A stretch of 51,538 nucleotides of DNA. Source: a virus (taxonomy: Duplodnaviria; Caudoviricetes). The DNA is taken from IMG/VR virus record IMGVR_UViG_3300048571_000060, positions 1 to 51,538 of that record. The stretch is one strand, 5' to 3'. Shown one piece after another: positions 2,961-49,461 of this stretch. The position numbers were made by a program, and so were the translations under genes. Within the stretch, counting starts at the first letter, position 1. Every line of letters starts with the position of its first letter. The notes beneath the pieces are model-generated. The model worked only from the letters and a program-made list of their open reading frames with translations, was not told where the DNA came from and did no database searches.

Positions 2961-2980
2961 TAAATTTAATTTAAAAAATC

Positions 2981-5464: not shown

Positions 5465-5471
5465 TGAGATT

Positions 5472-5759: not shown

Positions 5760-5762
5760 AAT

Positions 5763-29600: not shown

Positions 29601-29618
29601 TTTTACATTGTTTAATTA

Positions 29619-31247: not shown

Positions 31248-32914
31248 TCATTCATCAATATTTCACCGTTTTCAATTAGTATCTCACCGTCTTTTAATTG
31301 TGATGCTTTGAAATCACCTGTCCAATTTATGAACAGCCACAAATCTAATTCTTTAGCCATTTTCTCTAACAGCGTTTTAGTTTTTGAATCAATAGGTACG
31401 TCGTCAATCCATAAATACGGCAACGTTTTGTTTTTCTTGCTCAATAAGTAATTTTGAATCAACAAACAAATCATTGGCTTTTGAGTGCCACTATATGCAG
31501 ACACTTTTCGCAGGTCTTTGTTTTCGTTGTTGAAATATTTCTTATCATAACTGCCATCGTACATTAAATAAATGTTTTCATCTTCATCATTGTTTTGGTC
31601 CGTGCAAATGTACAATCCTTTAACTCCGGTATCAATGTTAGTTAGCTTGTCATAATAGTCTTTTTTAATGTTGTTGACGACTTGGTTAGCGTCAGACCAG
31701 TCATGAAACGAATTTATAGCTTCACTGTCTTTGTTATATGTTTTGGCGCTGTTTAAAGCCTTTTCAGCCGTCTCAAGTTGTGATTTCAATTCAGTATCAT
31801 CAAACGCATTTTCAGAATCTTTTAATGTTTGATATTTTTCAGATACTTCTTTATGTTCTTTCAGTAGTTTAAACAGTACTTTGTTTGATTTGAATTCTTT
31901 TGCTTTTGATTTGATTTTTCCTTTATCGTTGAATTCAATTTCATCTTCAATTTCTCCAAGATTTGGAATGTGTTTTTTGATGAATGCTTTTATTGAGTCA
32001 AGATGCTCACCATTTTCGTTATCACGCCATAATTCAAAAAGTGCGTCATTTACTTTTTTAATATTTTCAGCTTGAAGTTTTCTTGCGGTATTTTTAAGAA
32101 CAATTTCACCGTTGATTTTGCGAACGTCTGCAACAATTTCAAAACCTCTAGAGCTCAATTTACTTAATTCAGCATCCCTTGTCTGCTCTAGACTCGTTTG
32201 TGCTAAAGTAATTTTAGACTCAATGGTATTGTAGTCTTTTTGCAGTTTTTCAACATCCTTTAATTTTCTACGGTCAGTAAATATCATGCCCTTTTTAGTC
32301 ATGTCGTCAGCAATTCCGCCAACTTCTTTACGCTTCATATCCTTGTGGTTTCTTTCGTTTTTAGCGATTTCAATTTTGTGGATAATTCCTTTGGTATAAT
32401 CAGGATGCTTTTTGTCGTAAATAACGCCCTCGGCTTCAAGTTCGTTTTTATATAGTTCCAGCAGTATGTTTCGTTGAACGGTTGGATTTTCACTTGTCAA
32501 CTCATCCAGGCGCCAAGTCAACGCTGTTTGCAATGACTTTAAATAACTGGCTGGTGTTGCTCGTTGTCCGTCTATCACAACGTCTTTAACTTTGTTGCCG
32601 TCTTTATCAATGCCATAAAGGAAATAACTGAGTGACTGATTTTTGTCAGTTCTGCAACCAACATAGATGCTCATATCTCCGTCAGAAAGTTGGGCAGTGA
32701 CGTCAATGTCACCATATAGGTTTTTGTCAGTTAAAACGCCGCTTCCTTGAGTAGTTAGCCGCATGGCTCTATTGAGTGTGGTTTTACCCGCACCAACTTC
32801 GCCCTTTACGATTGTTAGCCTGTTTTTTTCATTAAACGTCAAGTTGACGGCTTTTAAACCGCCAAACTGATGTTCAATTGAAAGGCCTATGATTTTAACT
32901 TGTTTCTGTTTCAT
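31244..32914 (-). CDS. SMC/Rad50-like coiled-coil ABC ATPase
   Basis: Walker A 'GEVGAGKTT', long coiled coil, signature 'YSGTQ', Walker B 'LWIDD'. Confidence 0.75.
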   Translation of the reverse strand: MKQKQVKIIGLSIEHQFGGLKAVNLTFNEKNRLTIVKGEVGAGKTTLNRAMRLTTQGSGVLTDKNLYGDIDVTAQLSDGDMSIYVGCRTDKNQSLSYFLYGIDKDGNKVKDVVIDGQRATPASYLKSLQTALTWRLDELTSENPTVQRNILLELYKNELEAEGVIYDKKHPDYTKGIIHKIEIAKNERNHKDMKRKEVGGIADDMTKKGMIFTDRRKLKDVEKLQKDYNTIESKITLAQTSLEQTRDAELSKLSSRGFEIVADVRKINGEIVLKNTARKLQAENIKKVNDALFELWRDNENGEHLDSIKAFIKKHIPNLGEIEDEIEFNDKGKIKSKAKEFKSNKVLFKLLKEHKEVSEKYQTLKDSENAFDDTELKSQLETAEKALNSAKTYNKDSEAINSFHDWSDANQVVNNIKKDYYDKLTNIDTGVKGLYICTDQNNDEDENIYLMYDGSYDKKYFNNENKDLRKVSAYSGTQKPMICLLIQNYLLSKKNKTLPYLWIDDVPIDSKTKTLLEKMAKELDLWLFINWTGDFKASQLKDGEILIENGEILMNE

Positions 32915-33687
32915 ATTATTTTGAAATTAGTAACTTTGAAATATTGTTTCTCGTAGTCTTCATTGTGATTGTCTGTTGTGATAGTTAAAAGAGCTTTTTT
33001 GTTTTTGATTCTTTTACCAACACCATTAACAGTTGGAAGTCCGTATCTGTGACCATCATAATACATTTCTTTAAACATCCCATTGTTGAATCTTAAATGA
33101 CCGTAAACCAAATCGTTATAGTAAGCAAAATAATCAGCCACTGATAAGTTTTTAGCAAACTCAACTTCAACATCAATAGTTTTATCAATCAATTCAACAT
33201 ATAGTTTTTGACGAGCATCATAACGCTGTTGATTGTATTTGATTTCATCAGCTTGTTCTTGTGTTTGATAAACTTCGTCTTCAAACTTAACCCAATTATA
33301 TCTATCAACTAAAATTGATTCAATAAGTTCTTTTTGCTCACCTACTGCTTTGTTGGTTAAAAACCATGAATAATAGCTTTCATCATCAACGTCTGAAAAT
33401 TTTCTACCTGTATATTTACCAATTCCAAAAAAATCTGATGGAAAAGGCGATGCGTTGTTAGTTGACTTTTCAAATGAACGTGTGATACCTCTTAATTCTT
33501 CATTGATTGGAACGCCTGGATAAAGTGCTTTCACTTTGTCTAATGATATTGAAACGTTTTTGCAATAAAGATATTTATATGATGTGCCTGAGTGCCAATG
33601 CTTACCATAGGCGTCAGTGGTATAGTGCTCTTCCTGTAATACGTCCCACAATGTATAAAACTGATTAGCAAATCCTATTGTCGTCAT
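32911..33687 (-). CDS. hypothetical early protein
   Basis: 258 aa with a 'GIGKYTGRKFSDV' (FGKY-like) motif; directly downstream of promoter copy 1. Confidence 0.75.
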   Translation of the reverse strand: MTTIGFANQFYTLWDVLQEEHYTTDAYGKHWHSGTSYKYLYCKNVSISLDKVKALYPGVPINEELRGITRSFEKSTNNASPFPSDFFGIGKYTGRKFSDVDDESYYSWFLTNKAVGEQKELIESILVDRYNWVKFEDEVYQTQEQADEIKYNQQRYDARQKLYVELIDKTIDVEVEFAKNLSVADYFAYYNDLVYGHLRFNNGMFKEMYYDGHRYGLPTVNGVGKRIKNKKALLTITTDNHNEDYEKQYFKVTNFKII

Positions 33688-33704
33688 TTTGTTGTTTTTT
33701 TATT

Positions 33705-33770
33705 GTTGTTCTACTCTGCGAATGTACGACAATAAATTAACCTGCAAAATTTTTCGCAAACTTTTTTTCA
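33705..33770 (-). promoter_or_regulatory. conserved early promoter/operator element, copy 1 of 4
   Basis: - strand TGCGAAAAATTTTGCA...TACATTCGCAGAGTAGAACAAC. Confidence 0.75.
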
Positions 33771-34654
33771 CTTATTTTCAATTTATCTTGATTCTGTTTG
33801 TAAAAATCAATTGACTTATACAGTATTTCCCGCAGGTTACCGCCTTTGGTTAAAAATTGATTTAATGCGTTTTCAGATATGATAATTCGTTTAAGCAATG
33901 CTTCCTGGTGCATTTTAGACGCTTTGATTACTTGAATTGTAATTGGACATTCCTTCAAAAAATCTTTGTATAAATCCATTATATCACCGTCATAGTACAA
34001 ATACTTTCTAATATCAATTGGCGGCTCAGATACCACATAGTAGGTGATTGGTACTTGCCAAGCAATCATCTGTCCTTGAACTTGCCAAAAGTCAATCCCC
34101 TTATCATCCATCATTTCAAAAGTTCTTTCGTAATGCGTTCCCCACGCCGTACAGGCTTTCATTTCAACACTTGCAAGAACAACACCTTTTTCATCTTCAA
34201 ATATCGAATCACTTGAAACTCCAGCGTTTGGCATCATTGGAAACTGTTTAAAACCAACACTTTTGATTCTTCCATGAATTCCCATTTCTTTCAATTTTCG
34301 CTTGGTAGCTTTTTGAATAAGTGGCTCGACTTTTGTGCCGTACTGCATTTCCTTTGTCCCTTGTCCCATATCAATATATCTGCCAGTCTTACGTTCCATC
34401 GCATTTTCGTAGATATACTTTAAAGCAGTATTTCCAAAGTGAAATAATTTATCAATTTCATTCCACGTAATACGTCCGCCTGACTGCGAACAAGACATTA
34501 GATTTTTAAGTTGTGCGCCAGTCCAACGTCCTAACCGCTCTAGACGCCACTTCTCTGTTCGTTGCAGGTCTTTTGGCTTTTTAGCTTTCTTTTCCTTTGG
34601 CAAATCAAGATTAATGTCTGATTGTTTTGGTTTTTTAAATTCACTTTTTGGCAT
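33737..34654 (-). CDS. YqaJ / lambda-exonuclease-like recombination nuclease (start MPKSEF at 34654)
   Basis: 'QRTEKWRLERLGRWTG', 'MQYGTKVEP', 'GVSSD', 'VEMKA', 'WQVQGQM'. Confidence 0.85.
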   Translation of the reverse strand: MPKSEFKKPKQSDINLDLPKEKKAKKPKDLQRTEKWRLERLGRWTGAQLKNLMSCSQSGGRITWNEIDKLFHFGNTALKYIYENAMERKTGRYIDMGQGTKEMQYGTKVEPLIQKATKRKLKEMGIHGRIKSVGFKQFPMMPNAGVSSDSIFEDEKGVVLASVEMKACTAWGTHYERTFEMMDDKGIDFWQVQGQMIAWQVPITYYVVSEPPIDIRKYLYYDGDIMDLYKDFLKECPITIQVIKASKMHQEALLKRIIISENALNQFLTKGGNLREILYKSIDFYKQNQDKLKISEKKFAKNFAG

Positions 34655-35162
34655 CTTTCTTTGATTTTTTAGGTTCTGTTTTTGGTGCCATGCTATATCC
34701 GGCAGATACTGCTCGTCCAAGGTTTCGTCCAAATACATTTCCAAAAGTTGCAAGGGCGTTCCCTATTGCAGAAGTCCTGGCGTTTGGCGCACAATACTCA
34801 AGCGAGTTTGGGATTTTGCCCAGCGGAAACTTATGCACTAAAGACCCACTTTTTGCCGCTATAGGCTTTGCGCCTGTGCCGGATATTGTACGGTATTCAG
34901 CATTCGGATAGCTTGGCAAACATAGTATTTTTACAGTACACAAGATTTCATTTTCAATCTGTTCATACTGTTCATCAAACACATCGAATTGGTCAAACAG
35001 GATGTCGGCCAGCGCCTGTTGTATTGGAATTGGAATGTAGCTTGACGACTTGCCTGCTCCAAGGCTTCGTGACTTAATCCAGCTTTCTTTTGGTGCTTGG
35101 TTTATTGCATCACGCCAAGCGTCTTTTGATGCAAACCTGTACGTTTCTTTTGTTTCTGACAT
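34641..35162 (-). CDS. Rad52/Sak-like single-strand annealing protein
   Basis: 'YIPI', 'CTVKI', 'GTGA', 'AIGNALATFGNVFGRNL'; adjacent to the exonuclease. Confidence 0.7.
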   Translation of the reverse strand: MSETKETYRFASKDAWRDAINQAPKESWIKSRSLGAGKSSSYIPIPIQQALADILFDQFDVFDEQYEQIENEILCTVKILCLPSYPNAEYRTISGTGAKPIAAKSGSLVHKFPLGKIPNSLEYCAPNARTSAIGNALATFGNVFGRNLGRAVSAGYSMAPKTEPKKSKKDAKK

Positions 35163-35164
35163 AA

Positions 35165-35542
35165 TTATTTTTTATCTATAGTTTCAAATCTTCTAATTGG
35201 AATCAATACTTGTTCGTTATTTAACCAAACACCAAACTCTTGAACGTCTGTATTTTCAGTCAATATATAGCAGTCATTTTCAATATCATCTTCAACGCCA
35301 ATCATCCAATATGGTAATCCGTAACGAAGTTTCCAGATTTTTTTTCCGCCAGGACCATATTTGTCAAGTGTAAGAAAGTCACTTTTTACTGCGACCCTTA
35401 ACTTTATGTTGAACTCGAATATCTGCTGTCTTGTTCGCTTTTTTAGATTTTTTATTTCCTTTACTATCTTTTTTGACTGAATCGCCTCCTTTGCCTTTTT
35501 TTCCGGCTTTTTTGTCTTTTTTGCTTTTTGTTTTTTCATCAA
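35165..35542 (-). CDS. hypothetical protein with a Lys-rich N-terminus
   Basis: ORF in the operon. Confidence 0.6.
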   Translation of the reverse strand: MMKKQKAKKTKKPEKKAKEAIQSKKIVKEIKNLKKRTRQQIFEFNIKLRVAVKSDFLTLDKYGPGGKKIWKLRYGLPYWMIGVEDDIENDCYILTENTDVQEFGVWLNNEQVLIPIRRFETIDKK

Positions 35543-35765
35543 TTTCTGCTATAATTTTTTTAACTTCTTTTTTAGTATAGCCAATTCTATTGTTGTGAGC
35601 CATACAGCATATCCAACAACTTTCTATCGTGCTATGTCCAGCAAAGCCAGATTCAGTTGTAGTGCCGTCAGCATTTAAAAATGAACAAAGCCAACCTCTG
35701 TCTTTCGTCATGGCTGGCACTTTTATAGGGATTAATTCACCCTCAAACTTTCTTGAATAAGGCAT
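35379..35765 (-). CDS. hypothetical protein with a Lys-rich C-terminus
   Basis: ORF in the operon; overlaps the next gene. Confidence 0.5.
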   Translation of the reverse strand: MPYSRKFEGELIPIKVPAMTKDRGWLCSFLNADGTTTESGFAGHSTIESCWICCMAHNNRIGYTKKEVKKIIAEIDEKTKSKKDKKAGKKGKGGDSVKKDSKGNKKSKKANKTADIRVQHKVKGRSKK

Positions 35766-35882
35766 ATGGTTTTTGAAAATCTATATTACTGTTATACTTT
35801 TCGCTTTCGACTGAAATACCACAGCCTTTTAATGCTGTGGTAACTCCAATCGCTTTCAGTGGTATTTGCCTTTTTTGCTTTT

Positions 35883-36035
35883 TCATATTTTTTCAACGTA
35901 TAGTTTTGAAATTGGATATTTTGTTGGTTGCTCTTTTGATAGTTTTTTACGCATTCCATAAGCCAATGAAGCTGTTGAATAAGTGCCTACTATTTCGTAA
36001 TCTTTCTTATTTAATTTAAATCTTAATTGATACAT
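35883..36035 (-). CDS. small hypothetical protein (50 aa, MYQLRFKLNKKDYEIVGTYSTASLAYG...)
   Basis: Below the ORF-track cutoff; ATG 15 nt downstream of promoter copy 2. Confidence 0.55.
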   Translation of the reverse strand: MYQLRFKLNKKDYEIVGTYSTASLAYGMRKKLSKEQPTKYPISKLYVEKI

Positions 36036-36050
36036 TTTGCTGGTTTTATC

Positions 36051-36116
36051 GTTGTTCTACAGAACGAATGTACGACAATATTTTTAGTCTGCAAAATTTT
36101 TCGCATATTTTTTCAA
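36051..36116 (-). promoter_or_regulatory. conserved early promoter/operator element, copy 2 of 4
   Basis: Shares TGCGAAAAATTTTGCA, TTGTCGTACATTCG and GTAGAACAAC with copy 1. Confidence 0.75.
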
Positions 36117-36124
36117 GTTTTTTA

Positions 36125-36979
36125 TTAATACTTGATTCCATAGCTGTTGGCAATATAAAAAAACGTTGACAAAGATATTCGATTCATATTTCTACAACGG
36201 TCAAACTTCAAATCTGCGGCTTTTTGTTTATAGCCATGATTATATCTGCTTATTCTGTGAAAGTACTGCCTGCCTGTTTCACCAAAAGCATTGTACAAAG
36301 AACCAGCAATTTTTACCCAATCATTGTAATCAGTAGTGATGTCAACAGCATTCTGTTCAATTAACGAAACAACTGATTCAACTTTGTTTAGGTTTGATTT
36401 TGAAACTCCTGTAAATTTAACTTTTTTGAATTTTTTCTTTTTGGGTATTTGAAACAGTTTTGCGTCAGGATTATAGTAAGCAGTTTTGTCATAACTAAAA
36501 AACCGCAAACGAGTATAATCTTTACAACTTTCATCAATGTTAATTCCAATTGATTTAAGCGACTTTCTAAAATGTATAAAGTATTTTATCAGCTTATCTT
36601 TTTTGTCGATTTTAATAATAGCGTAGACGCCTTCATTACTGACTGAAAAGCCTGTGTACAATGTTGCCGGATGATGACTTAAATATTCCTTGACAGCGTT
36701 CATATCTGCAACCGGGTTTTCTTTCTTATCAATATCTAGACAGATTAGTTCGTTTTTTGATTTAATGTTGTCTAGATTCCTTACTTTTTTAAAAGTGGCT
36801 GAAACTGTTATGCACGGAATTTTCAGTTTGGCTTTTGGGTCTTTGGTTTTTCTGTAATTGACTATTTTGTTTTTGAGTTCATCAGGTGGGTTAATAGTGT
36901 CAGACAGCCATTTATCAAGACTGACGTCTTTTGGCTTTGTGTCTGACACGTTATTGAAATATGATACTTTTATTTTCAT
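36125..36979 (-). CDS. primase-like protein (BT4734/VirE N-terminal-like domain plus PriCT-2)
   Basis: 'KLKIPCITVS', 'ICLDID', 'SVSNEG', 'IDESCKDYTRLRFFSYD', 'DYNDWVKIAGSL'. Confidence 0.8.
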   Translation of the reverse strand: MKIKVSYFNNVSDTKPKDVSLDKWLSDTINPPDELKNKIVNYRKTKDPKAKLKIPCITVSATFKKVRNLDNIKSKNELICLDIDKKENPVADMNAVKEYLSHHPATLYTGFSVSNEGVYAIIKIDKKDKLIKYFIHFRKSLKSIGINIDESCKDYTRLRFFSYDKTAYYNPDAKLFQIPKKKKFKKVKFTGVSKSNLNKVESVVSLIEQNAVDITTDYNDWVKIAGSLYNAFGETGRQYFHRISRYNHGYKQKAADLKFDRCRNMNRISLSTFFYIANSYGIKY

Positions 36980-38067
36980 TATGCTTTGTCAAGCAATACC
37001 GGAGCAATTAAACCACGCATTTTCTTTTCACTAATACAGAATAGATTCTGTTTGCCAAGACTGAATTCAGCGTCTTTTTCAAATACACTTAAAACTTCAA
37101 TCAACATTTTTGAATTAAAACCAATTGTCAATTCTCCTTTGAATTTGATTGGTAAATCTTCCTTAACTCTGCTTGAGCTATTTATGTTATCACAACTTAA
37201 ATTCAAATTATCATTAGTGATGATTAATTTAATTGTTTGAACCTTTTCTTTTGACGACAATGCTGTTACACGTCTAATCGCTGTTAGGAACTTTTCTTTG
37301 TTAATTATAATTGGTGTGGCGTCGTCAACCGTGTCAACAATTTTTTTAAATATCTCAATAGGGAATTTTCCATTTTGTTGTATAGCCATTACCTTTTTAC
37401 GTCCAAATTTGAAGAAGATAGCATTTTCGTTATACTTCATTTCAACATTTGTATTTTCGTCAAGCAGGTTTTGAATGGCTGTTGAGGCTCTACCACTAAT
37501 AAGGATATCAAATTTGTCACCGCTACCTTTTACAACTTCTTGAAACAAACTAACTTTATTGGTTGAGCGTATTGTGATTTTTTTACCTATTTGAATTGAC
37601 AAGTTTGCCATTGGCTCCAAATCATTATCAATAACGAATTTGTTCGCAACCTTTAAAGTCTTTTTCAAATGTGTTGCATCAATTTCAGCAGTAAGTTTCA
37701 TTTTTTCGTCCTTTGCGTCTGGGTAAATAGCCGCATCTTCTAACGGGATTTTAAAATCACCACTCTTGTGCATAACGACACAATTCTTATCGTCAATTTT
37801 AAGCGTGATTTCCTGGTTCTTAATACTTTTCAATGCCGCTATAAACATCGAGTGGTTGATGCAAAAAACAACTAAATCTTCGTTCTTAATGTCAACTGAA
37901 TTTTCGCAACGAACTTCGTGATTGTCACCTGTTACGGTTAGTTCGTTTTTCTTGATATCAATCTTAACGCATTGTAAGATTGGCACCATGTGTCCGGGAT
38001 TGATTACTGCTTGAAGTGGCTCCAAAGCAGTAATCAGTGAGTCGCTGTTAATTTTTATTTTTGTCAT
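36979..38067 (-). CDS. dnaN: DNA polymerase III beta sliding clamp homologue
   Basis: 362 aa; 'PILQCVKI', 'GKFP', 'IGFNSKMLIEVL', 'GLIAPV'. Confidence 0.85.
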   Translation of the reverse strand: MTKIKINSDSLITALEPLQAVINPGHMVPILQCVKIDIKKNELTVTGDNHEVRCENSVDIKNEDLVVFCINHSMFIAALKSIKNQEITLKIDDKNCVVMHKSGDFKIPLEDAAIYPDAKDEKMKLTAEIDATHLKKTLKVANKFVIDNDLEPMANLSIQIGKKITIRSTNKVSLFQEVVKGSGDKFDILISGRASTAIQNLLDENTNVEMKYNENAIFFKFGRKKVMAIQQNGKFPIEIFKKIVDTVDDATPIIINKEKFLTAIRRVTALSSKEKVQTIKLIITNDNLNLSCDNINSSSRVKEDLPIKFKGELTIGFNSKMLIEVLSVFEKDAEFSLGKQNLFCISEKKMRGLIAPVLLDKA

Positions 38068-38378: not shown

Positions 38379-39089
38379 TTATACGCCTGTTTTTTGGTTC
38401 CAAATTACTATGTGAAGTCTTTCTGAATATCTGATGCCTTGTTGAATACATAGCTCAGCAACTATTGGTCTTGTCACAGCTAATTTGTCTTGTGTTTCGC
38501 CAGCTGGCATTAAACAGACGTTTGCCATATTAAGATGGTCACCATAGTCCTGCAAGATATCTATAAAATCTTCTTTTTGTGCGATTACAAATTTGAAAAT
38601 TATCTTTTTTCTAATCTGCGGTAAATTGTTTAAGAATTGAATCACTAATGGCTTGACTCTGCGTTCATATGGTTCGCCACTGTTTGCAAGTTTTGGAGAA
38701 CAGTTCCAATATTCAACATTAGAAATCATACCATCATTTGGCATAAGAGTTCCATTGGTTTCAACTTCTATGATTGGAAGAAAACCAAATTGTTCAAAAA
38801 ACCATTCAATGAACTCAACTATTTTCTTTTGATGCATAAGTGGCTCGCCGCCTGTAAACACCAAGTGAGCACCATATTTTAAAATTTGAACCTCCTCATC
38901 AGTAAACACTTCACTGAATGGTGTTTTTGTGCCCTTGCGCCATACTTCAATAGTATCGCAGACCCAACTGTCAGATTGACATAATATGTTACATCCTGAT
39001 AGACGTACAAAAATTGCCGGAATGCCCATTGTTTGGCCCTCGCCCTGAATACTGTAAAATTTTTCTGAAATAAATAAGTTATCTTTCAT
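38379..39089 (-). CDS. queE: 7-carboxy-7-deazaguanine synthase (radical SAM); start MKDNLF at 39089
   Basis: 'EKFYSIQGEG', 'FVRLSGCNILC....CDT', 'TGGEPL', 'VETNGT', 'CSPK', 'RLH'. Confidence 0.93.
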   Translation of the reverse strand: MKDNLFISEKFYSIQGEGQTMGIPAIFVRLSGCNILCQSDSWVCDTIEVWRKGTKTPFSEVFTDEEVQILKYGAHLVFTGGEPLMHQKKIVEFIEWFFEQFGFLPIIEVETNGTLMPNDGMISNVEYWNCSPKLANSGEPYERRVKPLVIQFLNNLPQIRKKIIFKFVIAQKEDFIDILQDYGDHLNMANVCLMPAGETQDKLAVTRPIVAELCIQQGIRYSERLHIVIWNQKTGV

Positions 39090-39570
39090 CTTCAAATGGA
39101 TTAAATTGTGGATTAAATTGCATTCTATTAAACTCGTCCCAATCAAAATGAAGCAAAGTCATGTATCTTTCAACTGTTTGTTGGTCAAGTCCTGTTTTGT
39201 TTGATATAGTGGTTGGTTTGATTTCTAATTCTTTCAACCTTGCAACTGCTTGAGCGATACCAAGATAATCAAGTCTTGACTGATGCACATTAAGGGCAAT
39301 TCTATAAAGCTCGTATTCGCCTGGTTTCAATTCACCTAAATTGTAGCATAAGATTTTTTTAAGTCTGAGAGCCTTTAGTGTTTTGAAATACTTTCCACCG
39401 TCAACAATTAAGTATTGGCCATCATGTTCACAAACAGTGATTGATTTATACTGCCCAAAATGATTGTTGATTCTGTTCATTGTCACTGCCACGTTTTTGT
39501 CAATTGGCTCAACAGTGTGAAAGTTTGGCTTAATTATTTTGTCAGTTTTTAAAATTTCAAATCTTCCCAT
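39079..39570 (-). CDS. ParB/Srx-like N-terminal domain protein with a C-terminal HTH
   Basis: 'FGQYKSITV....QYLIVDG' pattern with a degenerate Arg patch; 'TISNKTGLDQQTVERY' HTH. Confidence 0.65.
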   Translation of the reverse strand: MGRFEILKTDKIIKPNFHTVEPIDKNVAVTMNRINNHFGQYKSITVCEHDGQYLIVDGGKYFKTLKALRLKKILCYNLGELKPGEYELYRIALNVHQSRLDYLGIAQAVARLKELEIKPTTISNKTGLDQQTVERYMTLLHFDWDEFNRMQFNPQFNPFEDER

Positions 39571-40349
39571 ACGATACCTTTTTTATTCCAAAGTTGTGTG
39601 ATATATTCTTGTGTTTTTTTTGTTTCAATAATTGCTTTTTCAAGCCGTTGCCAATCGTCGTCGTAACATTCGATTGATTTCGCTTTAAATATGTCGTCTC
39701 GTTCACTAAAAGCCATTATAGGACGCGAATATCGTCCGAAAATTACCGTGCTTAATGGCGACGTAGAATCGACGCTAAAAAACGGATATCGTTCAATCAG
39801 CCCTGTTTTTGTCATTGCCAAACCGTGAACCTTAACTTTGTCACGAGTAATTGAAAATATCTTATCTAGATACGGTAACGAATCGTTCGCGATTAAAATA
39901 TAATCTTGACCTTCATTAACCCAATCCTGTAAGACGGTAAAAGTAGCATTGTCTAACGTCGGATGATATACGCGACAAAATTTAGCAACCAAACCATCTA
40001 ACGCCTGGACTTTGTAATACATTTCATCAATCTGCTCTTTTGGTAAATCAAGATAAACGTCAAACTCAACAAATACGAGTTTTCTATGTTTGTTTGCTTT
40101 AATGTATTCAAAGTATTCATCAATAAATTCACCAGCTGGTTTCAATTTTGTTTTACGCTTCATACCTATTGGCGTCATAGCGGCTTTGTTCCAACTATGA
40201 GCACCACTATCAACCATTAAAAAATATTCGTCATTCCAAGTGTCAATCTGCTTTCTTTCGTTAAGCATTGAATAGAGTTTTGGAACGTTGTGTTTGTAGC
40301 AGTTCAATTCACTGCCTCTGGTATCGCTACCAGCCACCATGATTAACAT
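39549..40349 (-). CDS. dpdA: DpdA-like TGT-fold DNA guanine transglycosylase
   Basis: 'MVDSGAHS', 'VYH', 'KVHGLA' and 'FFSVDSTS' TGT-fold motifs inside a folE/queD/queE cluster. Confidence 0.7.
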   Translation of the reverse strand: MLIMVAGSDTRGSELNCYKHNVPKLYSMLNERKQIDTWNDEYFLMVDSGAHSWNKAAMTPIGMKRKTKLKPAGEFIDEYFEYIKANKHRKLVFVEFDVYLDLPKEQIDEMYYKVQALDGLVAKFCRVYHPTLDNATFTVLQDWVNEGQDYILIANDSLPYLDKIFSITRDKVKVHGLAMTKTGLIERYPFFSVDSTSPLSTVIFGRYSRPIMAFSERDDIFKAKSIECYDDDWQRLEKAIIETKKTQEYITQLWNKKGIVWEDLKF

Positions 40350-41488
40350 TTTTCAATCAGTTTAGATATATAATAATGTTCATGCCATACATTGAATTCT
40401 TGATTTCCTATATCGTTTAACATTATGTAGGTTTTAAGTTTTCTACCTAAATCACAAATATATGCGACATTATGATGTTGTTGACGCTTGTGAATACAAT
40501 CGTTTAAAACCTTAACAGCAGATTCAACTTTGAATGGTTGATACAATCTGTCAGGATTTAAGATTTCAGGAAAGCTTCTAAAGTCAGGATAACATACGTC
40601 ACAATCAAACAGCGTGGCTTCAATTAAAGTCCAACTCACATAGTCTTGCAAAGCTGAATTAAATTGTACTTTACTTTTTTGAAGTTCAGTATAATATTCC
40701 TCTTTTGACAGTCCGGCTTTTAAAATAAACCTATCATTTTCAGACGCTATGTATTTCATATAATCAACAAAGCCAGGTATCGAGCTTTTAAACTCACTTC
40801 CAGACGTTGTAACAACCCATTTATAATCAGTATTTTCACGTAAAAAACGCAAAGCAGTTTCAACCATAAAATAAGGATTTTTTTCCTTATCTAATCTAGA
40901 TGTATAAATAATTTGGTCGCGTTTTGCGTAGATTTTTTCGCAAGTCTTAACGGCTAATTCCGCATGAATTGGCAATCCAACCACGTGAATTGGTGCTTTA
41001 AATCCGGCTTCACGAAGTTGTTGTTTATGGATGCCGCTACCAACGAAGATTCCTTTATGATAAGCATCAATACCAAGTTCAAAATGACGCATCCATTTTC
41101 TCATTGGGTGAGTAAAGTCATATTCGTCTACGCTTTGAGCGTGAAGCATTGAATAGACGTCAACTTTGATGTTATACAAATCAAGCATATAAAAGACTGA
41201 TTCAATTCCCGGCGTCCAAAAGTCCTGTAAATACAAAATGTCTCCGGTTTTTACAATTCCTCCAGATATAGCATTCATAAGCTGTTGGCATTGACTCATT
41301 GAATAAACTCCCCGACCATAAGCATCTAAAACTGAACCAACCCTAATTTCGTTGGTTTCAATTTCACCACGTAATTGAATAAAATTGATTTTCTTGCTTT
41401 TAAATGTTTCAGGAATCCATTGTTCGCTGAGCTGATAAGTGTATCGCTCTTTAAGTGGTTCAAGACCAAAGTACCATAAATTTCTCAT
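40343..41488 (-). CDS. GT-B fold glycosyltransferase (GT4-like)
   Basis: 'IIYTSRLDKEKNP', donor-binding D-x7-E 'QDYVSWTLIEA', 'YPDFRSFPE'. Confidence 0.82.
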   Translation of the reverse strand: MRNLWYFGLEPLKERYTYQLSEQWIPETFKSKKINFIQLRGEIETNEIRVGSVLDAYGRGVYSMSQCQQLMNAISGGIVKTGDILYLQDFWTPGIESVFYMLDLYNIKVDVYSMLHAQSVDEYDFTHPMRKWMRHFELGIDAYHKGIFVGSGIHKQQLREAGFKAPIHVVGLPIHAELAVKTCEKIYAKRDQIIYTSRLDKEKNPYFMVETALRFLRENTDYKWVVTTSGSEFKSSIPGFVDYMKYIASENDRFILKAGLSKEEYYTELQKSKVQFNSALQDYVSWTLIEATLFDCDVCYPDFRSFPEILNPDRLYQPFKVESAVKVLNDCIHKRQQHHNVAYICDLGRKLKTYIMLNDIGNQEFNVWHEHYYISKLIEKC

Positions 41489-41501
41489 AAACTGCTCAGT
41501 T

Positions 41502-41945
41502 TTAAATGTCGTGACGGTCGTGAATGTAGTCTTGACGGGTTACTTTTTGTCCATTGTGAAGCGTGAAACAATACATTTCGTGACTTCTAGGACACACTTT
41601 TATAGAATCGCTACTCTTTAGCTCAGCCAACTCTGGAACGTCAATCCAAAGCAGGATATGACATTTTAAAATCATGCTTTTTGGAATCTCTTTAATGTTG
41701 TCAGGCTTTGCTTCAAGCGTAAACATTTTTTTATCCTCGTCAATTAGCTTTTCAATAATTTCCCAGGTGATTTTTTGTTGAGTGTTTGTGCCTGACATTT
41801 TTGAAATCAACGTTGGACCAATTAGTATGTGGTTAAACTTTTTAACAACTGTTTCGAAAGTGTCAAAATCATCACTCACAAACAGCGTTTCCAATCCAAA
41901 AAGACGTCCTTCAATCTCTTTGCCGTACCAATATTTTTTTCTCAT
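41502..41945 (-). CDS. unknown protein within the modification cluster
   Basis: 'WYGKEIEGRLFGLETLFV'; start overlaps the stop of the DpdL-like gene. Confidence 0.7.
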   Translation of the reverse strand: MRKKYWYGKEIEGRLFGLETLFVSDDFDTFETVVKKFNHILIGPTLISKMSGTNTQQKITWEIIEKLIDEDKKMFTLEAKPDNIKEIPKSMILKCHILLWIDVPELAELKSSDSIKVCPRSHEMYCFTLHNGQKVTRQDYIHDRHDI

Positions 41946-42289
41946 AGTTCAATAATGATTTCAGCTCCGTTTTCATTGTCCTCAAGAACTTTGCAGTAAT
42001 TGAGCTGAAAAGTTTCAATCAACCTAACTGCTATCATTTCACAGCTCATTGAGTTAAAATCATGCACTGATTTTTCATTGCCATACATTTTTTTCAACCA
42101 CAATGTGATTTCACGCTTTAATTCAATAATCTCAACATCCCTGTCAAGGTGTGTGACTGCTTTTTTGCATTCGATGTGAAAGATGTGTCTGTGAGGAAAT
42201 TTCAAGAATGAAACTTCTTCGATAGGGCACTCAGGCCAATGGTGAATGCCCTCTACTTGAAGATTTACAATGATATTACTTTTTTGCAT
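41942..42289 (-). CDS. dpdL: QueD-like T-fold protein, DpdL-like (putative CDG decarboxylase); start MQKSNI at 42289
   Basis: 'EGIHHWP', LxxxHRHxF (LKFPHRHIF), 'DRDVE', 'SCEMIA', 'EDNENGA'. Confidence 0.65.
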   Translation of the reverse strand: MQKSNIIVNLQVEGIHHWPECPIEEVSFLKFPHRHIFHIECKKAVTHLDRDVEIIELKREITLWLKKMYGNEKSVHDFNSMSCEMIAVRLIETFQLNYCKVLEDNENGAEIIIEL

Positions 42290-42905
42290 TCTTTTTTGAT
42301 TTTTTATTTGATTTTTTATCCGTTGCAGGTTTGTCAGATGCTGTTGGCTTGTCTGCCGCAGGTTTGTCAGCGCCTTTTTTGTTTTTAGTAGCATCTGTTG
42401 CCAATTTGGCTTTGTGCAATTTGATAACGCTCCAAATTCTACCGTAAGACACATCATGTTTAGTGGCGTAGGCGTTGATGTCAAATTTTGCCGGGTCTTT
42501 GTCGTAATCTGCACGAACTTTGTCAAAGAATTTTTTGTCCAATTTTTTGTGATTGCTTAAATTTGATTTAGCTTTCTTTACCTCTTTAGGCTTGTCAGCC
42601 GCTTTGTTTTTTCCTTTGTCAGCCGCTTTTGGCTTGTCTGCTGACTTATCTGTCGCAGTTGCTTTAGGCTTGTCAGCTGTTTTGTCAGCGGCTTTTGGTT
42701 TATCGTCTGCCGTTGCTTTTGGTTTGGCTGTTTGAAAATAGCGTTCTTTCAAAACGTCTACTTTAAATGCTTTTCTTTCTCCGTTCACAGTCAAACGAAC
42801 TGTTCCTTTGTTTGCTGTTACTGGTAATTTTGTCAATCTGTTTGTGATTGTTCCGTCCTCACTCATATCGTAGTTAGGCGCTTCTGCTAATTTTAATGTT
42901 TTCAT
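42276..42905 (-). CDS. Lys/Ala-rich putative DNA-binding protein (NUMOD4-like N-terminus, KPKAADK repeats, HTH-like segment)
   Basis: 'PNYDMSEDGTITN....VRLTVNGERK'; histone H1-like composition. Confidence 0.6.
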   Translation of the reverse strand: MKTLKLAEAPNYDMSEDGTITNRLTKLPVTANKGTVRLTVNGERKAFKVDVLKERYFQTAKPKATADDKPKAADKTADKPKATATDKSADKPKAADKGKNKAADKPKEVKKAKSNLSNHKKLDKKFFDKVRADYDKDPAKFDINAYATKHDVSYGRIWSVIKLHKAKLATDATKNKKGADKPAADKPTASDKPATDKKSNKKSKKNAKK

Positions 42906-42934
42906 GATACTCGTTTTTTAAGTTTTTAAAATAT

Positions 42935-43180
42935 TTATTTAATTAATTTGCCACAAAGTGGATAGATTCTCGTATAGTAATTGGTACCTGGTTTGATGTG
43001 CTTTGTTCCTTTAAATGTGATTTTCTCTTCAGCGATGTGGTCTTGTCTACTTGCATATCCAATACAGCCTCTGTCGTTGCTTTCAACGTTTTTAGTCCCT
43101 ATCAGTTTTCCATCTACTATATATTCAATGAAAAAGCCTAATTCTTCAAACCTTGTTTCGTGTAATGTATTTGAATCCAT
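42935..43180 (-). CDS. small hypothetical early protein (start MDSNTL at 43180)
   Basis: ATG 13 nt downstream of promoter copy 3. Confidence 0.65.
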   Translation of the reverse strand: MDSNTLHETRFEELGFFIEYIVDGKLIGTKNVESNDRGCIGYASRQDHIAEEKITFKGTKHIKPGTNYYTRIYPLCGKLIK

Positions 43181-43193
43181 CTTGTTTGTGTTT

Positions 43194-43259
43194 GTTGTTC
43201 TACTCTGCGAATATATGAACAATATTTTAACCGCAAAACATTTTGCAAACTTTTTTCAA
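43194..43259 (-). promoter_or_regulatory. conserved early promoter/operator element, copy 3 of 4
   Basis: - strand TGCAAAATGTTTTGCGG...TATATTCGCAGAGTAGAACAAC. Confidence 0.75.
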
Positions 43260-43267
43260 GATTTTTT

Positions 43268-43753
43268 TTATTCAGCTATGTAAATCGCTGAATTCTTATC
43301 GTGCTCTATACATTCCACTGAAAGCAATTTTACTCGATTTTCTATAAAATCACTTTCAATTTGCTGTTCGATGAAGTCAAATACATACTTTGCAAAAGCT
43401 TCACAACCAACATTTGGCATAGTTCTTAATTGAATTAACTGCATTGTATCGAAGTCGTCAAAATATTCATACATAGGGTCATCACTTGCGACAACTGTTG
43501 TATGGTCAAACATATAATTGAACCAGTCTTTAATGGTTACAACTTTTTTAGGTAGTTTTCCTGGCGTGTTTTCTTTCAGCTTTGTTTTTAAAAATCCAAA
43601 GTCTTGGACCCAATTTTTATCATCAAGTCCTTTGGCTTGAAAGGTAAGTTTGAAACTAACTGAATATCCGTGTAAAAAGTTGCAATGCGAATTCGCTCGC
43701 CATTGTCTAAAACAGGTACTAAAACCGTCTACTAATTTAGTTGATTGATACAT
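43268..43753 (-). CDS. queD: 6-carboxy-5,6,7,8-tetrahydropterin synthase
   Basis: 'CFRQWRANSHCNFLHGY', 'WVQDFG', 'FDHT', 'GCE', 'EHDKNSA'. Confidence 0.9.
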   Translation of the reverse strand: MYQSTKLVDGFSTCFRQWRANSHCNFLHGYSVSFKLTFQAKGLDDKNWVQDFGFLKTKLKENTPGKLPKKVVTIKDWFNYMFDHTTVVASDDPMYEYFDDFDTMQLIQLRTMPNVGCEAFAKYVFDFIEQQIESDFIENRVKLLSVECIEHDKNSAIYIAE

Positions 43754-43755
43754 AA

Positions 43756-44406
43756 TTATTTAGTGTTTAAAAATTCGTTTCTTACTTCTTGATTTTCTTT
43801 AAACGACCCGCCCAATTTTCTTGTTGTGGTCCAGCAGTTTTTATCCTCAATCCCTCTTGCTTTAACGCAATGGTGAACAGCTCGTATTTCAACAGCTACG
43901 TCTTCAGTTTCCAAAATTAAAACCAATGCCGCTTGTATCTGCAAAGTCAAACGTTCCTGAATTTGAGGTCGCTTACTAAAAAACCTGACAATCCTGTTTA
44001 ATTTTGAAAGCCCCAAAACTTTGTCCTTTGGAATGTAGGCAACTTTGGCGACACCTTCAATGTTTTGAAAGTGATGCTCACACACACTACTCACATCAAC
44101 ACCGCCCTCAATAACCATTTCGTCAGCTTTGAATTTGTTATGCACGTTGGTACATTTTGGAAAGTGGTCATAATTTAATCCTTCAAAAATCTCACAGCTG
44201 AACATCTTTGCAATTCGCATTGGTGTATCCTGCAGACTGTCGTCATTTAAGTCAAGGCCTAACGCTTTCATAATGTGCGTAAAACTTTCCTCAATAATTG
44301 TTTTTTGCTCTTCAGTTTTGTATTTACCATTCACAAATGGCGTTTCAATACCAAGTTCCTTCAAATGTTCGTGAACCTGTTTTCCTAATTCCTTGTCTGT
44401 GTTCAT
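43756..44406 (-). CDS. folE: GTP cyclohydrolase I
   Basis: 'DTPMRIAKM', 'SVCEHH', 'GLSKLNR', 'RPQIQERLT', 'HHCVKARG'. Confidence 0.96.
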   Translation of the reverse strand: MNTDKELGKQVHEHLKELGIETPFVNGKYKTEEQKTIIEESFTHIMKALGLDLNDDSLQDTPMRIAKMFSCEIFEGLNYDHFPKCTNVHNKFKADEMVIEGGVDVSSVCEHHFQNIEGVAKVAYIPKDKVLGLSKLNRIVRFFSKRPQIQERLTLQIQAALVLILETEDVAVEIRAVHHCVKARGIEDKNCWTTTRKLGGSFKENQEVRNEFLNTK

Positions 44407-44726: not shown

Positions 44727-44923
44727 ATCTTACTAAAATATTTATCAATTGTCTTACTTATCATATAATGGCTTACTCCAAATTTTTGCTTCATCGCTTC
44801 ATATGTATTGTTCTTTTCCTTCAAATAGAACTCAATTATCTGTTCTTCAAGATATGGCGTTAACTCAACAGGCGAAAGCTTTGTTCCGTTATTATTAAAA
44901 CGGGAGGTCGTCTTGCTCTTCAT
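44723..44923 (-). CDS. small HTH-like protein
   Basis: 'TYEAMKQKFGVSHYMISKTI' HTH pattern. Confidence 0.55.
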   Translation of the reverse strand: MKSKTTSRFNNNGTKLSPVELTPYLEEQIIEFYLKEKNNTYEAMKQKFGVSHYMISKTIDKYFSKI

Positions 44924-46118
44924 TTATTTTTCCATTAAATTCATTCGCTTGATGCGAAGGTGATTCAGTACTTGCGGCTATTCCGTTATAGTCAACCCAA
45001 TAACGCTGAATGCCGCCCTTCATAATTTTGTGCTTGGTGTGTTTTGCCAATGCTTTGCCCATTGGAACTGAACTCATCTTTGATTGAAACGCTGGAACAT
45101 TAACCAATATTTTCTGTATCACTTCACTGCCTGAAAGCATCTCGCCATCACCCTTTGCATTGTTGCAAGTAAAGTATCGTAAAAACAATTCTTCCTCCAA
45201 ACTAACAGTTCTAAATTTTTCATTTGATTGGTTGATTTCACGGATTTCATCAATATTGAACCAATGCCTGTAACCGTCTTTCCATAGCTTATACGCTTGA
45301 GCCCAAATCATATCAGGGTTGATTTTATGTCTATAATCAATACTTTTTACCTTAAACACCAACCAACGTCTGTTTCCTGTTGTATCTGATAGAAACTTAT
45401 CCTCGTTGACTGAGCCTAAAAAAGATGCTCTTCTGACAAGATGTGACGTGTACCGCCCATAAGATTTACGAACGCTGATTCGTTGTCTTGTGATATATGA
45501 TTTAATTGCTGAAATGTCATTGCTTCGCAAAGTTTCAAGTTCGTCCAAGTGAATAAACCAATATTGACTCAAGTACATTGTGTGGTCCTTGTTTTTGGTG
45601 TCAATATTTCCTTCATACAGATATTCAGATTGAAATTGCTTTGGCAATAATGAACGCATCCACCTGGTTTTTCCAACTCCTTGTCCGGATTGAAAAACCA
45701 AACAAACGTCATTTACGCTGTCTGTTCGCAGTAGGCAGTCAATACATCCAACAAGATACCGTTCTAAAGTTTTTTCAAAGTGCTTATCATTATCAGTCTT
45801 GATAGTTTTTGAAATCTTTTTAATCCAATTTTTACCGTCCCATTTTGCAAGGTTGTCAAAGTATTCTTCAAATGGATTGTATTCTGTGGCAAAATCCATA
45901 CTTTCAATAAATATATCAACCTTGTCTGAGGGAACGTCTATGTGTTCAGCCATCAACTCAAGCAGTATTGATTTTCTATATCTATCGTCGTATTTTTTCC
46001 ATTTTGAATTCTTTTTGTTTTTCCTAAACTCATAGAAGTTGGTTACAACATTGAAACGAAATATGTATTTAGATGAAATGTAGTTGAAAGCATTGCTGTT
46101 CTTTCCATTAAATTTCAT
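44895..46118 (-). CDS. VapE/VirE-like P-loop helicase
   Basis: 'YNPFEEY', 'WDG', 'SGQGVGKT', 'LDEL', 'RKSYG', 'FLSDTTGNRRW'. Confidence 0.88.
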   Translation of the reverse strand: MKFNGKNSNAFNYISSKYIFRFNVVTNFYEFRKNKKNSKWKKYDDRYRKSILLELMAEHIDVPSDKVDIFIESMDFATEYNPFEEYFDNLAKWDGKNWIKKISKTIKTDNDKHFEKTLERYLVGCIDCLLRTDSVNDVCLVFQSGQGVGKTRWMRSLLPKQFQSEYLYEGNIDTKNKDHTMYLSQYWFIHLDELETLRSNDISAIKSYITRQRISVRKSYGRYTSHLVRRASFLGSVNEDKFLSDTTGNRRWLVFKVKSIDYRHKINPDMIWAQAYKLWKDGYRHWFNIDEIREINQSNEKFRTVSLEEELFLRYFTCNNAKGDGEMLSGSEVIQKILVNVPAFQSKMSSVPMGKALAKHTKHKIMKGGIQRYWVDYNGIAASTESPSHQANEFNGKINEEQDDLPF

Positions 46119-48709: not shown

Positions 48710-49147
48710 TTAATAGTGCATTGTTATATAATGAAAATTTGATGAGTGACGCAGTCTATAAAGACACGTTTCAATCAACATTGGAACGTTTCCAATATGT
48801 TTAACTAATTTGACTCTGTTTGTTTGATATAAGTCAATTTTTTCAACCTCCATCGTTCTTAAAGTTTTGTCAGTTGTGCCTGTAAAGATAGTGACATTGA
48901 AACCTGTGCTATCATTATTGATACCTTTCATTTCGCCAACTTCAATAAGTTGTTCAGCACTGATGTCAAGACCAGATTCTTCTTTCAGTTCGCGAATCAC
49001 TGCCTGCATTGGAGTTTCGTCTTCTTCAATTTTACCACCAATACCATTCAAACAGCCTTTTTGCCATTCTGGTTTTTGCTTTTGGATTAACCATACCTTT
49101 TCAACATTATGTGTAAATAAAAAGGCGACTACATAATTTGTTATCAT
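48710..49147 (-). CDS. NUDIX hydrolase
   Basis: Nudix box GGKIEEDETPMQAVIRELKEESGL. Confidence 0.9.
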   Translation of the reverse strand: MITNYVVAFLFTHNVEKVWLIQKQKPEWQKGCLNGIGGKIEEDETPMQAVIRELKEESGLDISAEQLIEVGEMKGINNDSTGFNVTIFTGTTDKTLRTMEVEKIDLYQTNRVKLVKHIGNVPMLIETCLYRLRHSSNFHYITMHY

Positions 49148-49461
49148 GATTTTATTGTTTTAGGTGCCGGTTTCAACGGCGTTAGATACTTTTCTTTTTT
49201 CTTTTGAAGCTTTTTATTCACTATACGATTGATTTTTCGTTTGTTGAATAACATTTCAGCTGAGCGCATCGCAATCTTCATATCAGCCAGCTCACTATAT
49301 ACGTCATTCAATAGCTTTTTCTTGTCGATCTTTGTTGGACATTTTAATTGGTGTAATGCAAGGCCCAATTCTTGAGACTCTTCCTGTATTTTGTCAACAG
49401 TTGCAACTTCTCCAAACTTCCTAATCAGTTGCTTGATTATCTTTAGGTTTTCAGCTGTCAT
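49144..49461 (-). CDS. MazG-like nucleotide pyrophosphohydrolase
   Basis: 'KIQEESQEL' and 'SELADM' acidic motifs. Confidence 0.65.
   Translation of the reverse strand: MTAENLKIIKQLIRKFGEVATVDKIQEESQELGLALHQLKCPTKIDKKKLLNDVYSELADMKIAMRSAEMLFNKRKINRIVNKKLQKKKEKYLTPLKPAPKTIKS

Follow-up and report, generated by a model that had tools for sequence, protein, structure and literature searches.

What base does a phage place in its DNA when its genes for 7-deazaguanine modification lack QueC and carry a glycosyltransferase (GT) in their midst? The question is raised by the viral record IMGVR_UViG_3300048571_000060 (Caudoviricetes), analysed over its whole length of 51,538 bases (hereafter the window), which is a complete phage genome with direct terminal repeats and an estimated completeness of 100%. 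Ten co-oriented genes in its open reading frame (ORF) list run on the minus strand from 44406 down to 38379, in the order FolE, QueD, orf95, orf209, a DpdL-type protein, orf147, the GT, a DpdA-like protein, a ParB-like protein and QueE. All ten lie where an earlier note, made from the sequence without database searches, had placed them in proposing a new hypermodified base. The system is a variant of the known phage 7-deazaguanine DNA-modification systems, and the GT very probably belongs to the deazaguanine pathway. Whether the end product in DNA bears a sugar, the operon having a proposed built-in sugar-transfer step, is evenly balanced. The full reading, to which we give a probability of roughly 0.45, is that phages with a DpdL-GT-(orf147)-DpdA set replace guanine with a glycosylated 7-deazaguanine, which would be the first sugar-bearing purine in DNA.

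The GT is tied to the deazaguanine genes by the company it keeps in other viruses. At least 258 of 304 pattern-matched IMG/VR contigs encode a relative of it, and the best 80 of these, together with three isolates, provided 83 loci in which same-strand ORFs within 7 kb were clustered; many of these loci are truncated. A protein of about 416 aa with the fold of tRNA-guanine transglycosylases (TGT) lies directly beside the GT in 74 of the 83 (PF01702 26.8 bits, cut-off 26.3), the orf147 family is near it in 59 and DpdL in 54, and the long loci have FolE, QueD and QueE 4-8 kb upstream. Between orf147 and DpdL, 24 loci have a cytidylyltransferase-like nucleotidyltransferase (PF01467 7.4e-12; phrog_7878 2.1e-35), whose best NCBIfam matches, rfaE domain II and TagD, are both below their cut-offs. 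Three different DpdA types accompany the GT, in differing gene orders, and sipho-like, T4-like and jumbo phages alike preserve its adjacency to DpdL and the TGT-fold gene. A GT that stays beside DpdL and a transglycosylase although the phage type, the order of the genes and the DpdA family all change, and that in several lineages is accompanied by sugar-handling genes, has the pattern of an activated-sugar pathway enzyme. The earlier note had claimed that the GT is coupled to the cluster and had named a co-occurrence survey among the tests of that claim; the survey bears it out, with the GT found beside DpdL and TGT genes in unrelated phages.

Cultured phages show the same association. The GT has matches in 23 isolate phage records, and a DpdL match lies 0-4 kb away in 18 of them (BUCT-ZZ01, two records of ACP17, Phosso, BUDD, X1, BCSR5 and 11 PA5oct-like phages); the other five GT matches are marginal, at 18.9% identity and E 1e-5. 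The order of the genes again differs, being TGT-GT-DpdL-QueE in ACP17, TGT-GT-DpdL in PA5oct and TGT-DpdL-GT in BUCT-ZZ01. The idea that DpdL is missing from contigs with orf147, GT and TGT was rejected for one 72-kb fragment, where DpdL lies about 30 kb away; four other records with this trio and no DpdL are 9-36% complete.

A further neighbour of the GT, present in 18 of the 83 loci, is a phosphoribosyltransferase (PRTase) resembling hypoxanthine-guanine phosphoribosyltransferase (HGPRT). Examples are found in L011 (6488-7033), L017 (5078-5584), L001 (1093-1554) and L003 (8309-8743), with NCBIfam HGPRTase scores of 138-143 bits against a cut-off of 150. Its role may be to salvage the guanine that DpdA releases or to form a deazaguanine nucleotide.

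How might such a module work? By the chemistry established for their families, FolE, QueD and QueE would convert GTP to 7-carboxy-7-deazaguanine (CDG). A six-frame search of the complete genome with PF06508 gave no QueC candidate, with a control positive in 14 of 14 genomes, and the sole QueF signal was a sub-threshold match on FolE itself (14.8 bits, cut-off 27.3), in agreement with the earlier note, which had recognised neither gene. Sequence comparison supports reading the cluster as a queC-less, DpdL-type 7-deazaguanine DNA-modification set. From CDG onwards, DpdL is proposed to yield 7-deazaguanine by decarboxylation, and the DpdA1-like enzyme with its ParB-like partner would act after replication, replacing guanine in the phage DNA with the deazaguanine base. 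The GT, which resembles enzymes of family GT4, would pass the sugar of a nucleotide-activated donor to the deazaguanine, either as the free base before insertion or as the base in DNA, and orf147, as a co-inherited enzyme, might create an acceptor group or tailor the sugar or the base. The virion DNA would thus bear a sugar-carrying 7-deazaguanine. All chemical steps after CDG, as well as the acceptor, the donor sugar and the persistence of the sugar in DNA, are what we infer. Six-frame searches of the window also gave no ThyA-type hydroxymethylase (ThyX was not searched for), no cytidylyltransferase-like nucleotidyltransferase and no PRTase at E up to 0.01 (ArcS was not searched for).

The linkage was also surveyed in reverse, from DpdL. 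At least 593 IMG/VR contigs encode DpdL, and the best 80 loci, those most like the DpdL of the window, were typed by tblastn and then, for negatives, with hidden Markov models (HMM). The GT is present in 55 of the 80 and QueC in none. Loci with a large TGT have the GT in 26 cases and lack it in one; those with a DpdA1-like enzyme have it in 27 and lack it in four, namely L088, L090, L091 and L164 (three reassigned from ‘none’ after HMM); and those with no recognised DpdA have it in two and lack it in nine. It is absent from all 11 loci of the type seen in Cellulophaga phage phiST, which carry DpdA3 and/or a protein like CGPG_00066. Two layouts therefore never mix in the 80 loci, one with the GT and a DpdA1-like enzyme or large TGT and the other with a CGPG_00066-like protein and DpdA3. 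The nucleotidyltransferase occurs exclusively with the GT (12 of 12 occurrences), and the PRTase is found with it in eight loci and without it in five. GT-absent rows sit on separate long branches of a DpdA tree, which cannot tell base-level from DNA-level glycosylation.

Several of the GT-less loci have other genes of note. Homologues of CGPG_00066 (30-42% identity) stand between DpdL and DpdA3 in 10 of the 11 phiST-type loci (L096, L099, L112, L113, L121, L126, L130, L131, L133 and L136), the eleventh, L115, having a DpdA3 match only. In the GT-absent locus with a large TGT, L151, a 332-aa ORF of no assigned family (2179-3177) occupies the slot of the GT between DpdL and TGT, and a Cpn60-type chaperonin follows (4486-6096). 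The GT-less DpdL/DpdA cluster of L164 includes a Vut_1 (PF02592) membrane protein at 2575-3126 (E 5.5e-07), a family which we take to include the preQ0/preQ1 transporter YhhQ. For CGPG_00066, work on GenBank phages is reported to have turned up no homologue in any other phage with deazaguanine genes (Cui, Hutinet et al., NAR 2023, PMC10516641; this paper, PMC12191111 and PMC12518689 are cited here and below from excerpts).

Does the GT leave a sugar on the final base at all? It could be an accessory or biosynthetic factor required for making or inserting the deazaguanine, the final base being plain 7-deazaguanine (dDG) or CDG (dCDG) in deoxynucleoside form and any sugar being transient or carried by an intermediate, with the GT and orf147 together filling the role that the CGPG_00066-like protein has in phiST-type clusters. 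The mutual exclusion of the GT and CGPG_00066/DpdA3 just described is in favour of this: by tblastn typing the GT is in none of the 11 phiST-type loci, against 53 of 55 with the other DpdA types. So is the finding, in the excerpted text, that DpdL plus DpdA from phiST or from the GT-bearing phage ACP17 gave no dDG in E. coli (PMC10516641), and so are the want of an obvious sugar acceptor on 7-deazaguanine and the acidity of the GT, which fits a small-molecule substrate. The four GT-absent DpdA1-like loci, however, pair DpdL with their DpdA without either the GT or a CGPG_00066-like gene, and neither therefore looks obligatory. Dedicated sugar-activation genes in 24 loci, and a second GT in BUCT-ZZ01, would moreover be a large investment for a transient handle, and PA5oct is targeted by sensors of hypermodified DNA, although these sensors also hit preQ0-type phages (PMC12191111). 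We consider an accessory role unlikely, and of the alternatives it survives best. The weights we attach to pathway membership and to a sugar in the product follow from the linkage and from the contrast between the phiST layout, which never has the GT and whose exemplar phiST has DNA with plain dDG and no dCDG (PMC10516641), and PA5oct, which has the GT and whose DNA contains a modified G of chemistry described as not determined (PMC12191111).

In a tblastn comparison the DpdL-type protein of the window matches the region of phiST that holds CGPG_00067, the protein since renamed DpdL (PMC10516641), at 37.5% identity across 95% of the query (E 3e-12). The DpdL signature LxxxHRHxF is reported to replace the QueD motif CxxxHGH (PMC10516641); it reads L-K-F-P-H-R-H-I-F in the window, and its residues L29, H33, R34, H35 and F37 do not vary among the aligned relatives (10 of 10). 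The context fits as well, with FolE, QueD, QueE and DpdA present and no QueC in the window. The protein has no Pfam PTPS match, and its only PHROG match, phrog_17812, is to a family without a named function. The earlier note had recognised a T-fold LxxxHRHxF protein and likened it to DpdL; the likeness to DpdL is upheld by these comparisons.

Its decarboxylase activity is a proposal only in the source (PMC10516641), and DpdL might not act as a decarboxylase in GT clusters. CDG or some other 7-substituted base would then be inserted and the GT would glycosylate the substituent, with DpdL and orf147 tailoring otherwise. The carboxylate of CDG could accept a sugar, the DpdA2 of VH7D can insert CDG at low efficiency, and dCDG occurs in a Sulfolobus virus (both PMC10516641). 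Yet the DpdL of the window has the full signature and is 37.5% identical to that of phiST, a dDG phage, and acyl glycosides are labile, and we regard this reading as improbable.

The GT itself looks, from its predicted structure, like a working enzyme. An AlphaFold2 model built with a 39-homologue alignment has a mean local confidence (pLDDT) of 89.5 and a global score (pTM) of 0.89, and was used instead of a single-sequence model with a pLDDT of 35. Foldseek gave at least 500 PDB matches for it at E <= 0.001. GT4 enzymes of the retaining type are at the top, with TM scores of 0.60-0.64, among them BshA (2.4e-12, TM 0.64), a mycobacterial mannosyltransferase, glycogen synthase, SenB, MshA and WlaC, which confirms the GT-B glycosyltransferase that the earlier note had named. 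A sequence profile searched against PDB matched WlaC only (E 0.0012), and it is to WlaC that the R/K stretch of the GT aligns. R198, K203, D282 and E290 are invariant in 39 GT sequences, and R198/K203 and the D-x7-E pair D282 and E290, a motif of the E-x7-E type, are presumably the GT4 donor-binding motifs. The family comprises 860 proteins at E <= 1e-5 and is unusually conserved (53-72% identity); many homologues of 53-65% identity carry PF00534 in a precomputed table. The GT is also the best-conserved protein of the module, being 53-57% identical to its counterparts in marine T4-like contigs, against about 26% for QueE. The family is essentially viral, with three matches among one genome from each of 185,579 prokaryote species. 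These three (L168-L170) are on contigs of about 4 kb binned to a gammaproteobacterial metagenome-assembled genome (MAG) and a Nitrosopelagicus MAG, and are most likely viral contigs that were misbinned.

T4-type alpha- and beta-GTs are absent from ranks 1-50 of the PDB matches listed for the model, and among BFVD structures the ‘DNA alpha-GT’ of cyanophage S-TIM5 comes no higher than rank 21 (E 1.4e-7, TM 0.49). A complex prediction of the GT with DpdA scored 0.35, 0.00 and 0.00, and counts neither for nor against binding. Least probable of all is that the GT has another target (a different DNA base, a protein of phage or host, or a glycan on the host surface) and sits in the operon for shared early expression. 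In favour of this, the usual acceptors of GT4 enzymes, the top Foldseek matches among them, are sugars, lipids, small molecules and proteins; the GT resembles a phage DNA alpha-GT in fold alone; and in T4-like contigs the module has replication genes around it (polymerase, clamp, clamp loader, dUTPase). Against it, the complete genome has no ThyA-type hydroxymethylase to supply 5-hydroxymethylcytosine (hmC) or 5-hydroxymethyluracil (hmU), the adjacency to DpdL and the TGT-fold gene survives rearranged orders and swapped DpdA types, DpdL is carried by every one of the 18 isolate records in which the GT homologue is clear, and the family is nearly absent from cellular genomes.

The DpdA-like protein scores as TGT-fold on a PHROG match, its similarity to phage DpdA and two Asp motifs. 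The PHROG family, phrog_887 (‘queuine tRNA-ribosyltransferase’), covers residues 160-263; the protein is 28% identical to the DpdA of Cellulophaga phage phiSM over 90% of its length (E 5e-6), and 27-32% identical to ‘DpdA-like’ genes of an Edwardsiella phage and mycobacteriophages (E 4e-9 to 2e-7). D47-S48-G49 and D194-S195 are invariant in 31 sequences and are, we assume, the catalytic Asp motifs of TGT enzymes; the second aligns with that of the Pfam-positive TGT family. Pfam TGT has no match in the protein, NCBIfam DpdA has a weak one (0.087), and a profile of the 31 sequences found no match among PDB sequences. Gene order agrees with the assignment to DpdA1 type, as the DpdA-ParB pairing is the same in the window and in phiSM, whose DpdA is classed as DpdA1 (PMC10516641).

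The third member of the set, orf147, was an ‘unknown ORF’ in the earlier note. It still matches no known family, yet it is no mere filler: the family it represents is conserved and has the GT with it in every case (17 of 17 in the DpdL survey). W6, G8, E10, E12, G13, R14, T20, F22, H39, E78, H96, L109, K110, D113, Y140 and D143 are invariant in 20 diverse members, a pattern that suggests an enzyme. A profile of the 20 sequences found no PDB match at E up to 10, comparison with the Atlas gave chance-level eukaryotic matches only, tblastn found no match in isolate phages at E 0.01, and an HMM found none among the small ORFs of the phiST, MA9V-3, ACP17, PA5oct and BUCT-ZZ01 clusters. Since it is absent from the clusters of ACP17, PA5oct and BUCT-ZZ01, orf147 belongs to the GT module as an accessory in certain lineages only and lies outside its core. 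Homology of orf147 to CGPG_00066 of phiST was rejected at sequence level; an analogous role is possible.

A number of points weigh against a glycosylated 7-deazaguanine in the DNA of these phages. The first is chemical. 7-Deazaguanine is without a hydroxyl and has no evident acceptor, a matter the earlier note did not address, and its glycosylated-base interpretation is on balance partly supported. The sugar would have to be attached to the CDG carboxylate, to an exocyclic N or O, to C7 or to a group that orf147 introduces, for none of which is there a precedent here. Since the window has no nucleotidyltransferase, the host must supply any sugar donor. With a median pI of 5.5 and a median net charge of -10, the GT family is acidic, unlike what is expected of a DNA-binding enzyme, which weakly favours a small-molecule acceptor, and the GT of the window is under the PF00534 cut-off (14.2 against 26.4 bits). 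Comparison of DpdA with the Pfam-positive TGT family by hhalign recovered a 20-column motif only, at a probability of 9.9%; the TGT fold that the earlier note gave to 39549-40349 thus holds by PHROG, phage similarity and motifs, and not by Pfam or profile alignment. The presence of the GT tracks DpdA lineage, all 11 DpdA3-type loci being GT-minus and the four GT-minus DpdA1-like loci standing on long branches of their own, and co-inheritance alone could explain part of the linkage; survey counts, too, come from related sequences and not from independent events. Finally, no GT-bearing phage has any demonstrated chemistry, and the prediction, though well founded, is unproven.

The genes of the cluster, with two others of the window that may bear on it, are collected in Table 1.

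Table 1. Predicted genes of the deazaguanine-GT cluster and possibly associated nucleotide-hydrolase genes in the window (numbers after family names are E-values unless given as bits)
Feature	Position	Strand	Basis
FolE, GTP cyclohydrolase I (GTP to dihydroneopterin triphosphate, H2NTP)	43756-44406	-	PF01227 7.6e-58; NCBIfam FolE equivalog 2e-90, 302 bits against cut-off 202
QueD-like 6-carboxytetrahydropterin (CPH4) synthase, T-fold	43268-43753	-	PF01242 5.1e-14; phrog_2389 (PHROG QueD) 1.2e-42
orf95	42935-43222	-	no Pfam, PHROG or NCBIfam family
orf209, Lys/Ala/Asp-rich, repetitive	42276-42905	-	no Pfam, PHROG or NCBIfam family above threshold
DpdL-type QueD paralogue (proposed CDG decarboxylase)	41942-42289	-	phrog_17812 9.3e-22; likeness to phiST DpdL; LxxxHRHxF
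orf147, 147 aa, conserved family	41502-41945	-	no Pfam, PHROG or NCBIfam family; 20-member alignment
GT, GT-B fold, GT4-like (retaining-type) nucleotide-sugar glycosyltransferase	40343-41488	-	AlphaFold2 model and Foldseek
DpdA1-like DNA guanine transglycosylase, 266 aa	39549-40349	-	phrog_887 4.8e-16; likeness to phiSM DpdA
ParB-like N-terminal domain protein	39079-39570	-	phrog_16545 2.5e-07 and five further ParB or related PHROG families; NCBIfam parB 0.0021; synteny with phiSM
QueE, radical S-adenosylmethionine CDG synthase	38379-39146	-	phrog_2076 1.9e-55, full length; PF13353 4.8e-07
Nudix hydrolase	48710-49147	-	phrog_1198 2e-14
MazG-like NTP pyrophosphohydrolase	49144-49461	-	phrog_18193 6.1e-32; phrog_2245 1e-07

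The packing of these genes is much as the earlier note had described it, with mostly overlapping junctions from the T-fold gene to QueE. The overlaps are 14 nt for orf209/DpdL, 4 nt for DpdL/orf147, 7 nt for GT/DpdA and 22 nt for DpdA/ParB, and a 13-nt gap before the GT is the sole non-overlapping junction between orf209 and QueE. With the ATG at 39089 as the start of QueE, which is the likely one, the ParB/QueE overlap is 11 nt; with the TTG start it is 68 nt. Five NCBIfam QueE models match QueE (6.1e-19 to 3.7e-11), each under its equivalog cut-off. A consensus scan of the block for promoters and terminators gave counts at or below shuffled expectation, of little weight either way. The QueD motif in the alignment is CxxxHGY and not the canonical CxxxHGH in the window and in clusters L084, L166, L054 and L011, those of phiST and phiSM included; the QueD of two other cluster types, L053 and L164, keeps the canonical HGH. 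By tblastn, homologues of orf95 are found in the nearest relatives only (70% in L004, 45-46% in L007 and L038), as are those of orf209 (46% in L004, 32% in L007), which has repeated KPKA/ADK units around a short non-repetitive core.

Beyond the cluster, a thioredoxin gene (50519-50815) shares the distal end of the minus-strand early region with the Nudix and MazG genes. By analogy with phiST, in which MazG adjoins DpdL, the Nudix/MazG pair is possibly associated with the deazaguanine cluster. Replication genes at 28687-38067 and 44895-46118 include a helicase, an SbcC-like ATPase, an exonuclease, two primase-like genes and a beta-clamp. No DNA polymerase gene was recognised in the regions of the window scanned, and the phage may therefore rely on the host polymerase, which would fit post-replicative base exchange. 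Identical or near-identical pieces of the cluster (38379-44406) occur in several freshwater metagenome assemblies, and short identical pieces in four further runs indicate only the recurrence of this phage or of near-identical strains. Its habitat is probably freshwater, though its nearest isolates infect marine Cellulophaga. A near-identity DNA search with the cluster among isolate phages gave no match.

What would follow from a sugar on deazaguanine? To our knowledge, all sugar-bearing DNA bases are pyrimidines, namely derivatives of hmC and hmU, and base J. If the prediction is true, a glycosylated deazapurine would add a class to the natural DNA bases, one produced by a GT4-type enzyme together with a new enzyme family (orf147), and this would matter for restriction, CRISPR and glycosylase-based defences, for enzyme tools and for virome sequencing. 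The module is widespread among phages of marine and fresh waters, with the GT encoded on at least 258 and DpdL on at least 593 viral contigs, and its presence in culturable phages such as PA5oct and ACP17 makes the prediction directly testable, with the two mutually exclusive DpdL layouts as a natural control. It may explain both the unidentified modified G of PA5oct (PMC12191111) and the failure of ACP17 DpdL and DpdA to produce dDG in E. coli (PMC10516641). The earlier note knew of no characterised glycosylated deazaguanine in DNA, and a literature search agrees, having found no paper on such a base or on this GT in a limited collection of articles exclusive of supplements; nor is any of the eight 7-deazaguanines counted in PMC10516641 named as sugar-bearing in its abstract or Table 1.

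Known systems resemble the window in part. The isolates with the GT (the Pseudomonas PA5oct group, Acidovorax ACP17, Synechococcus BUCT-ZZ01, Sinorhizobium phage Phosso and Xanthomonas phages BUDD and X1) share with it a GT homologue of 23-36% identity that adjoins DpdL and a TGT-fold gene, with QueE nearby. Unlike the window, they have the larger TGT-fold type (416-540 aa) and jumbo or T4-like genomes with their own polymerases, and the clusters of ACP17, PA5oct and BUCT-ZZ01 have no orf147 homologue detectable by HMM. BUCT-ZZ01 has a second, weakly GT4-like protein beside its TGT gene (L001 3010-4353; PglJ-like, 6.9e-4), and gp164 of PA5oct (L003 7779-8297) weakly resembles GalE and the short-chain dehydrogenases/reductases (5.6e-4); both genes hint at more elaborate sugars in these phages.

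The T4-type alpha- and beta-GTs, which act on 5-hydroxymethylcytosine, are like the GT of the window in having a GT-B fold and in being phage-encoded next to base-modification genes, and are a precedent for the addition of a sugar to a modified base in DNA. The resemblance does not go beyond the fold, however; the nearest solved structures to the GT of the window are GT4 small-molecule transferases, and the ThyA search found no hydroxymethyl handle. QTMAN, an animal enzyme, is in our understanding a member of family GT4. With QTGAL it accounts for the mannosyl- and galactosyl-queuosine of animal tRNA, a sugar-bearing 7-deazaguanine in nucleic acid (PMC12518689). There, unlike in the window, the nucleic acid is RNA and the sugar is on the cyclopentenediol of queuosine, which the window pathway cannot make.

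Among the Cellulophaga phages, phiST (Cui, Hutinet et al., NAR 2023, PMC10516641) shares with the window FolE, QueD and QueE without QueC, DpdL, a MazG-type pyrophosphohydrolase in the genome and probably the host phylum. It differs in having DpdA3, the 159-aa CGPG_00066 protein and no glycosyltransferase, where the window has a DpdA1-like enzyme with ParB, orf147 and a GT4-like GT. The nearest isolate backbone is that of phiSM, a phage with dPreQ1/mdPreQ1, whose clamp is 38.7% and DpdA 28% identical to those of the window and whose order of FolE ... DpdA-ParB ... QueE-small ORF-clamp-primase-like gene is the same. Where the window has DpdL, orf147 and the GT, phiSM has QueC, QueF and the methylase DpdM, and from this gene-order comparison a tailoring cassette appears to have been swapped on a backbone common to the two phages.

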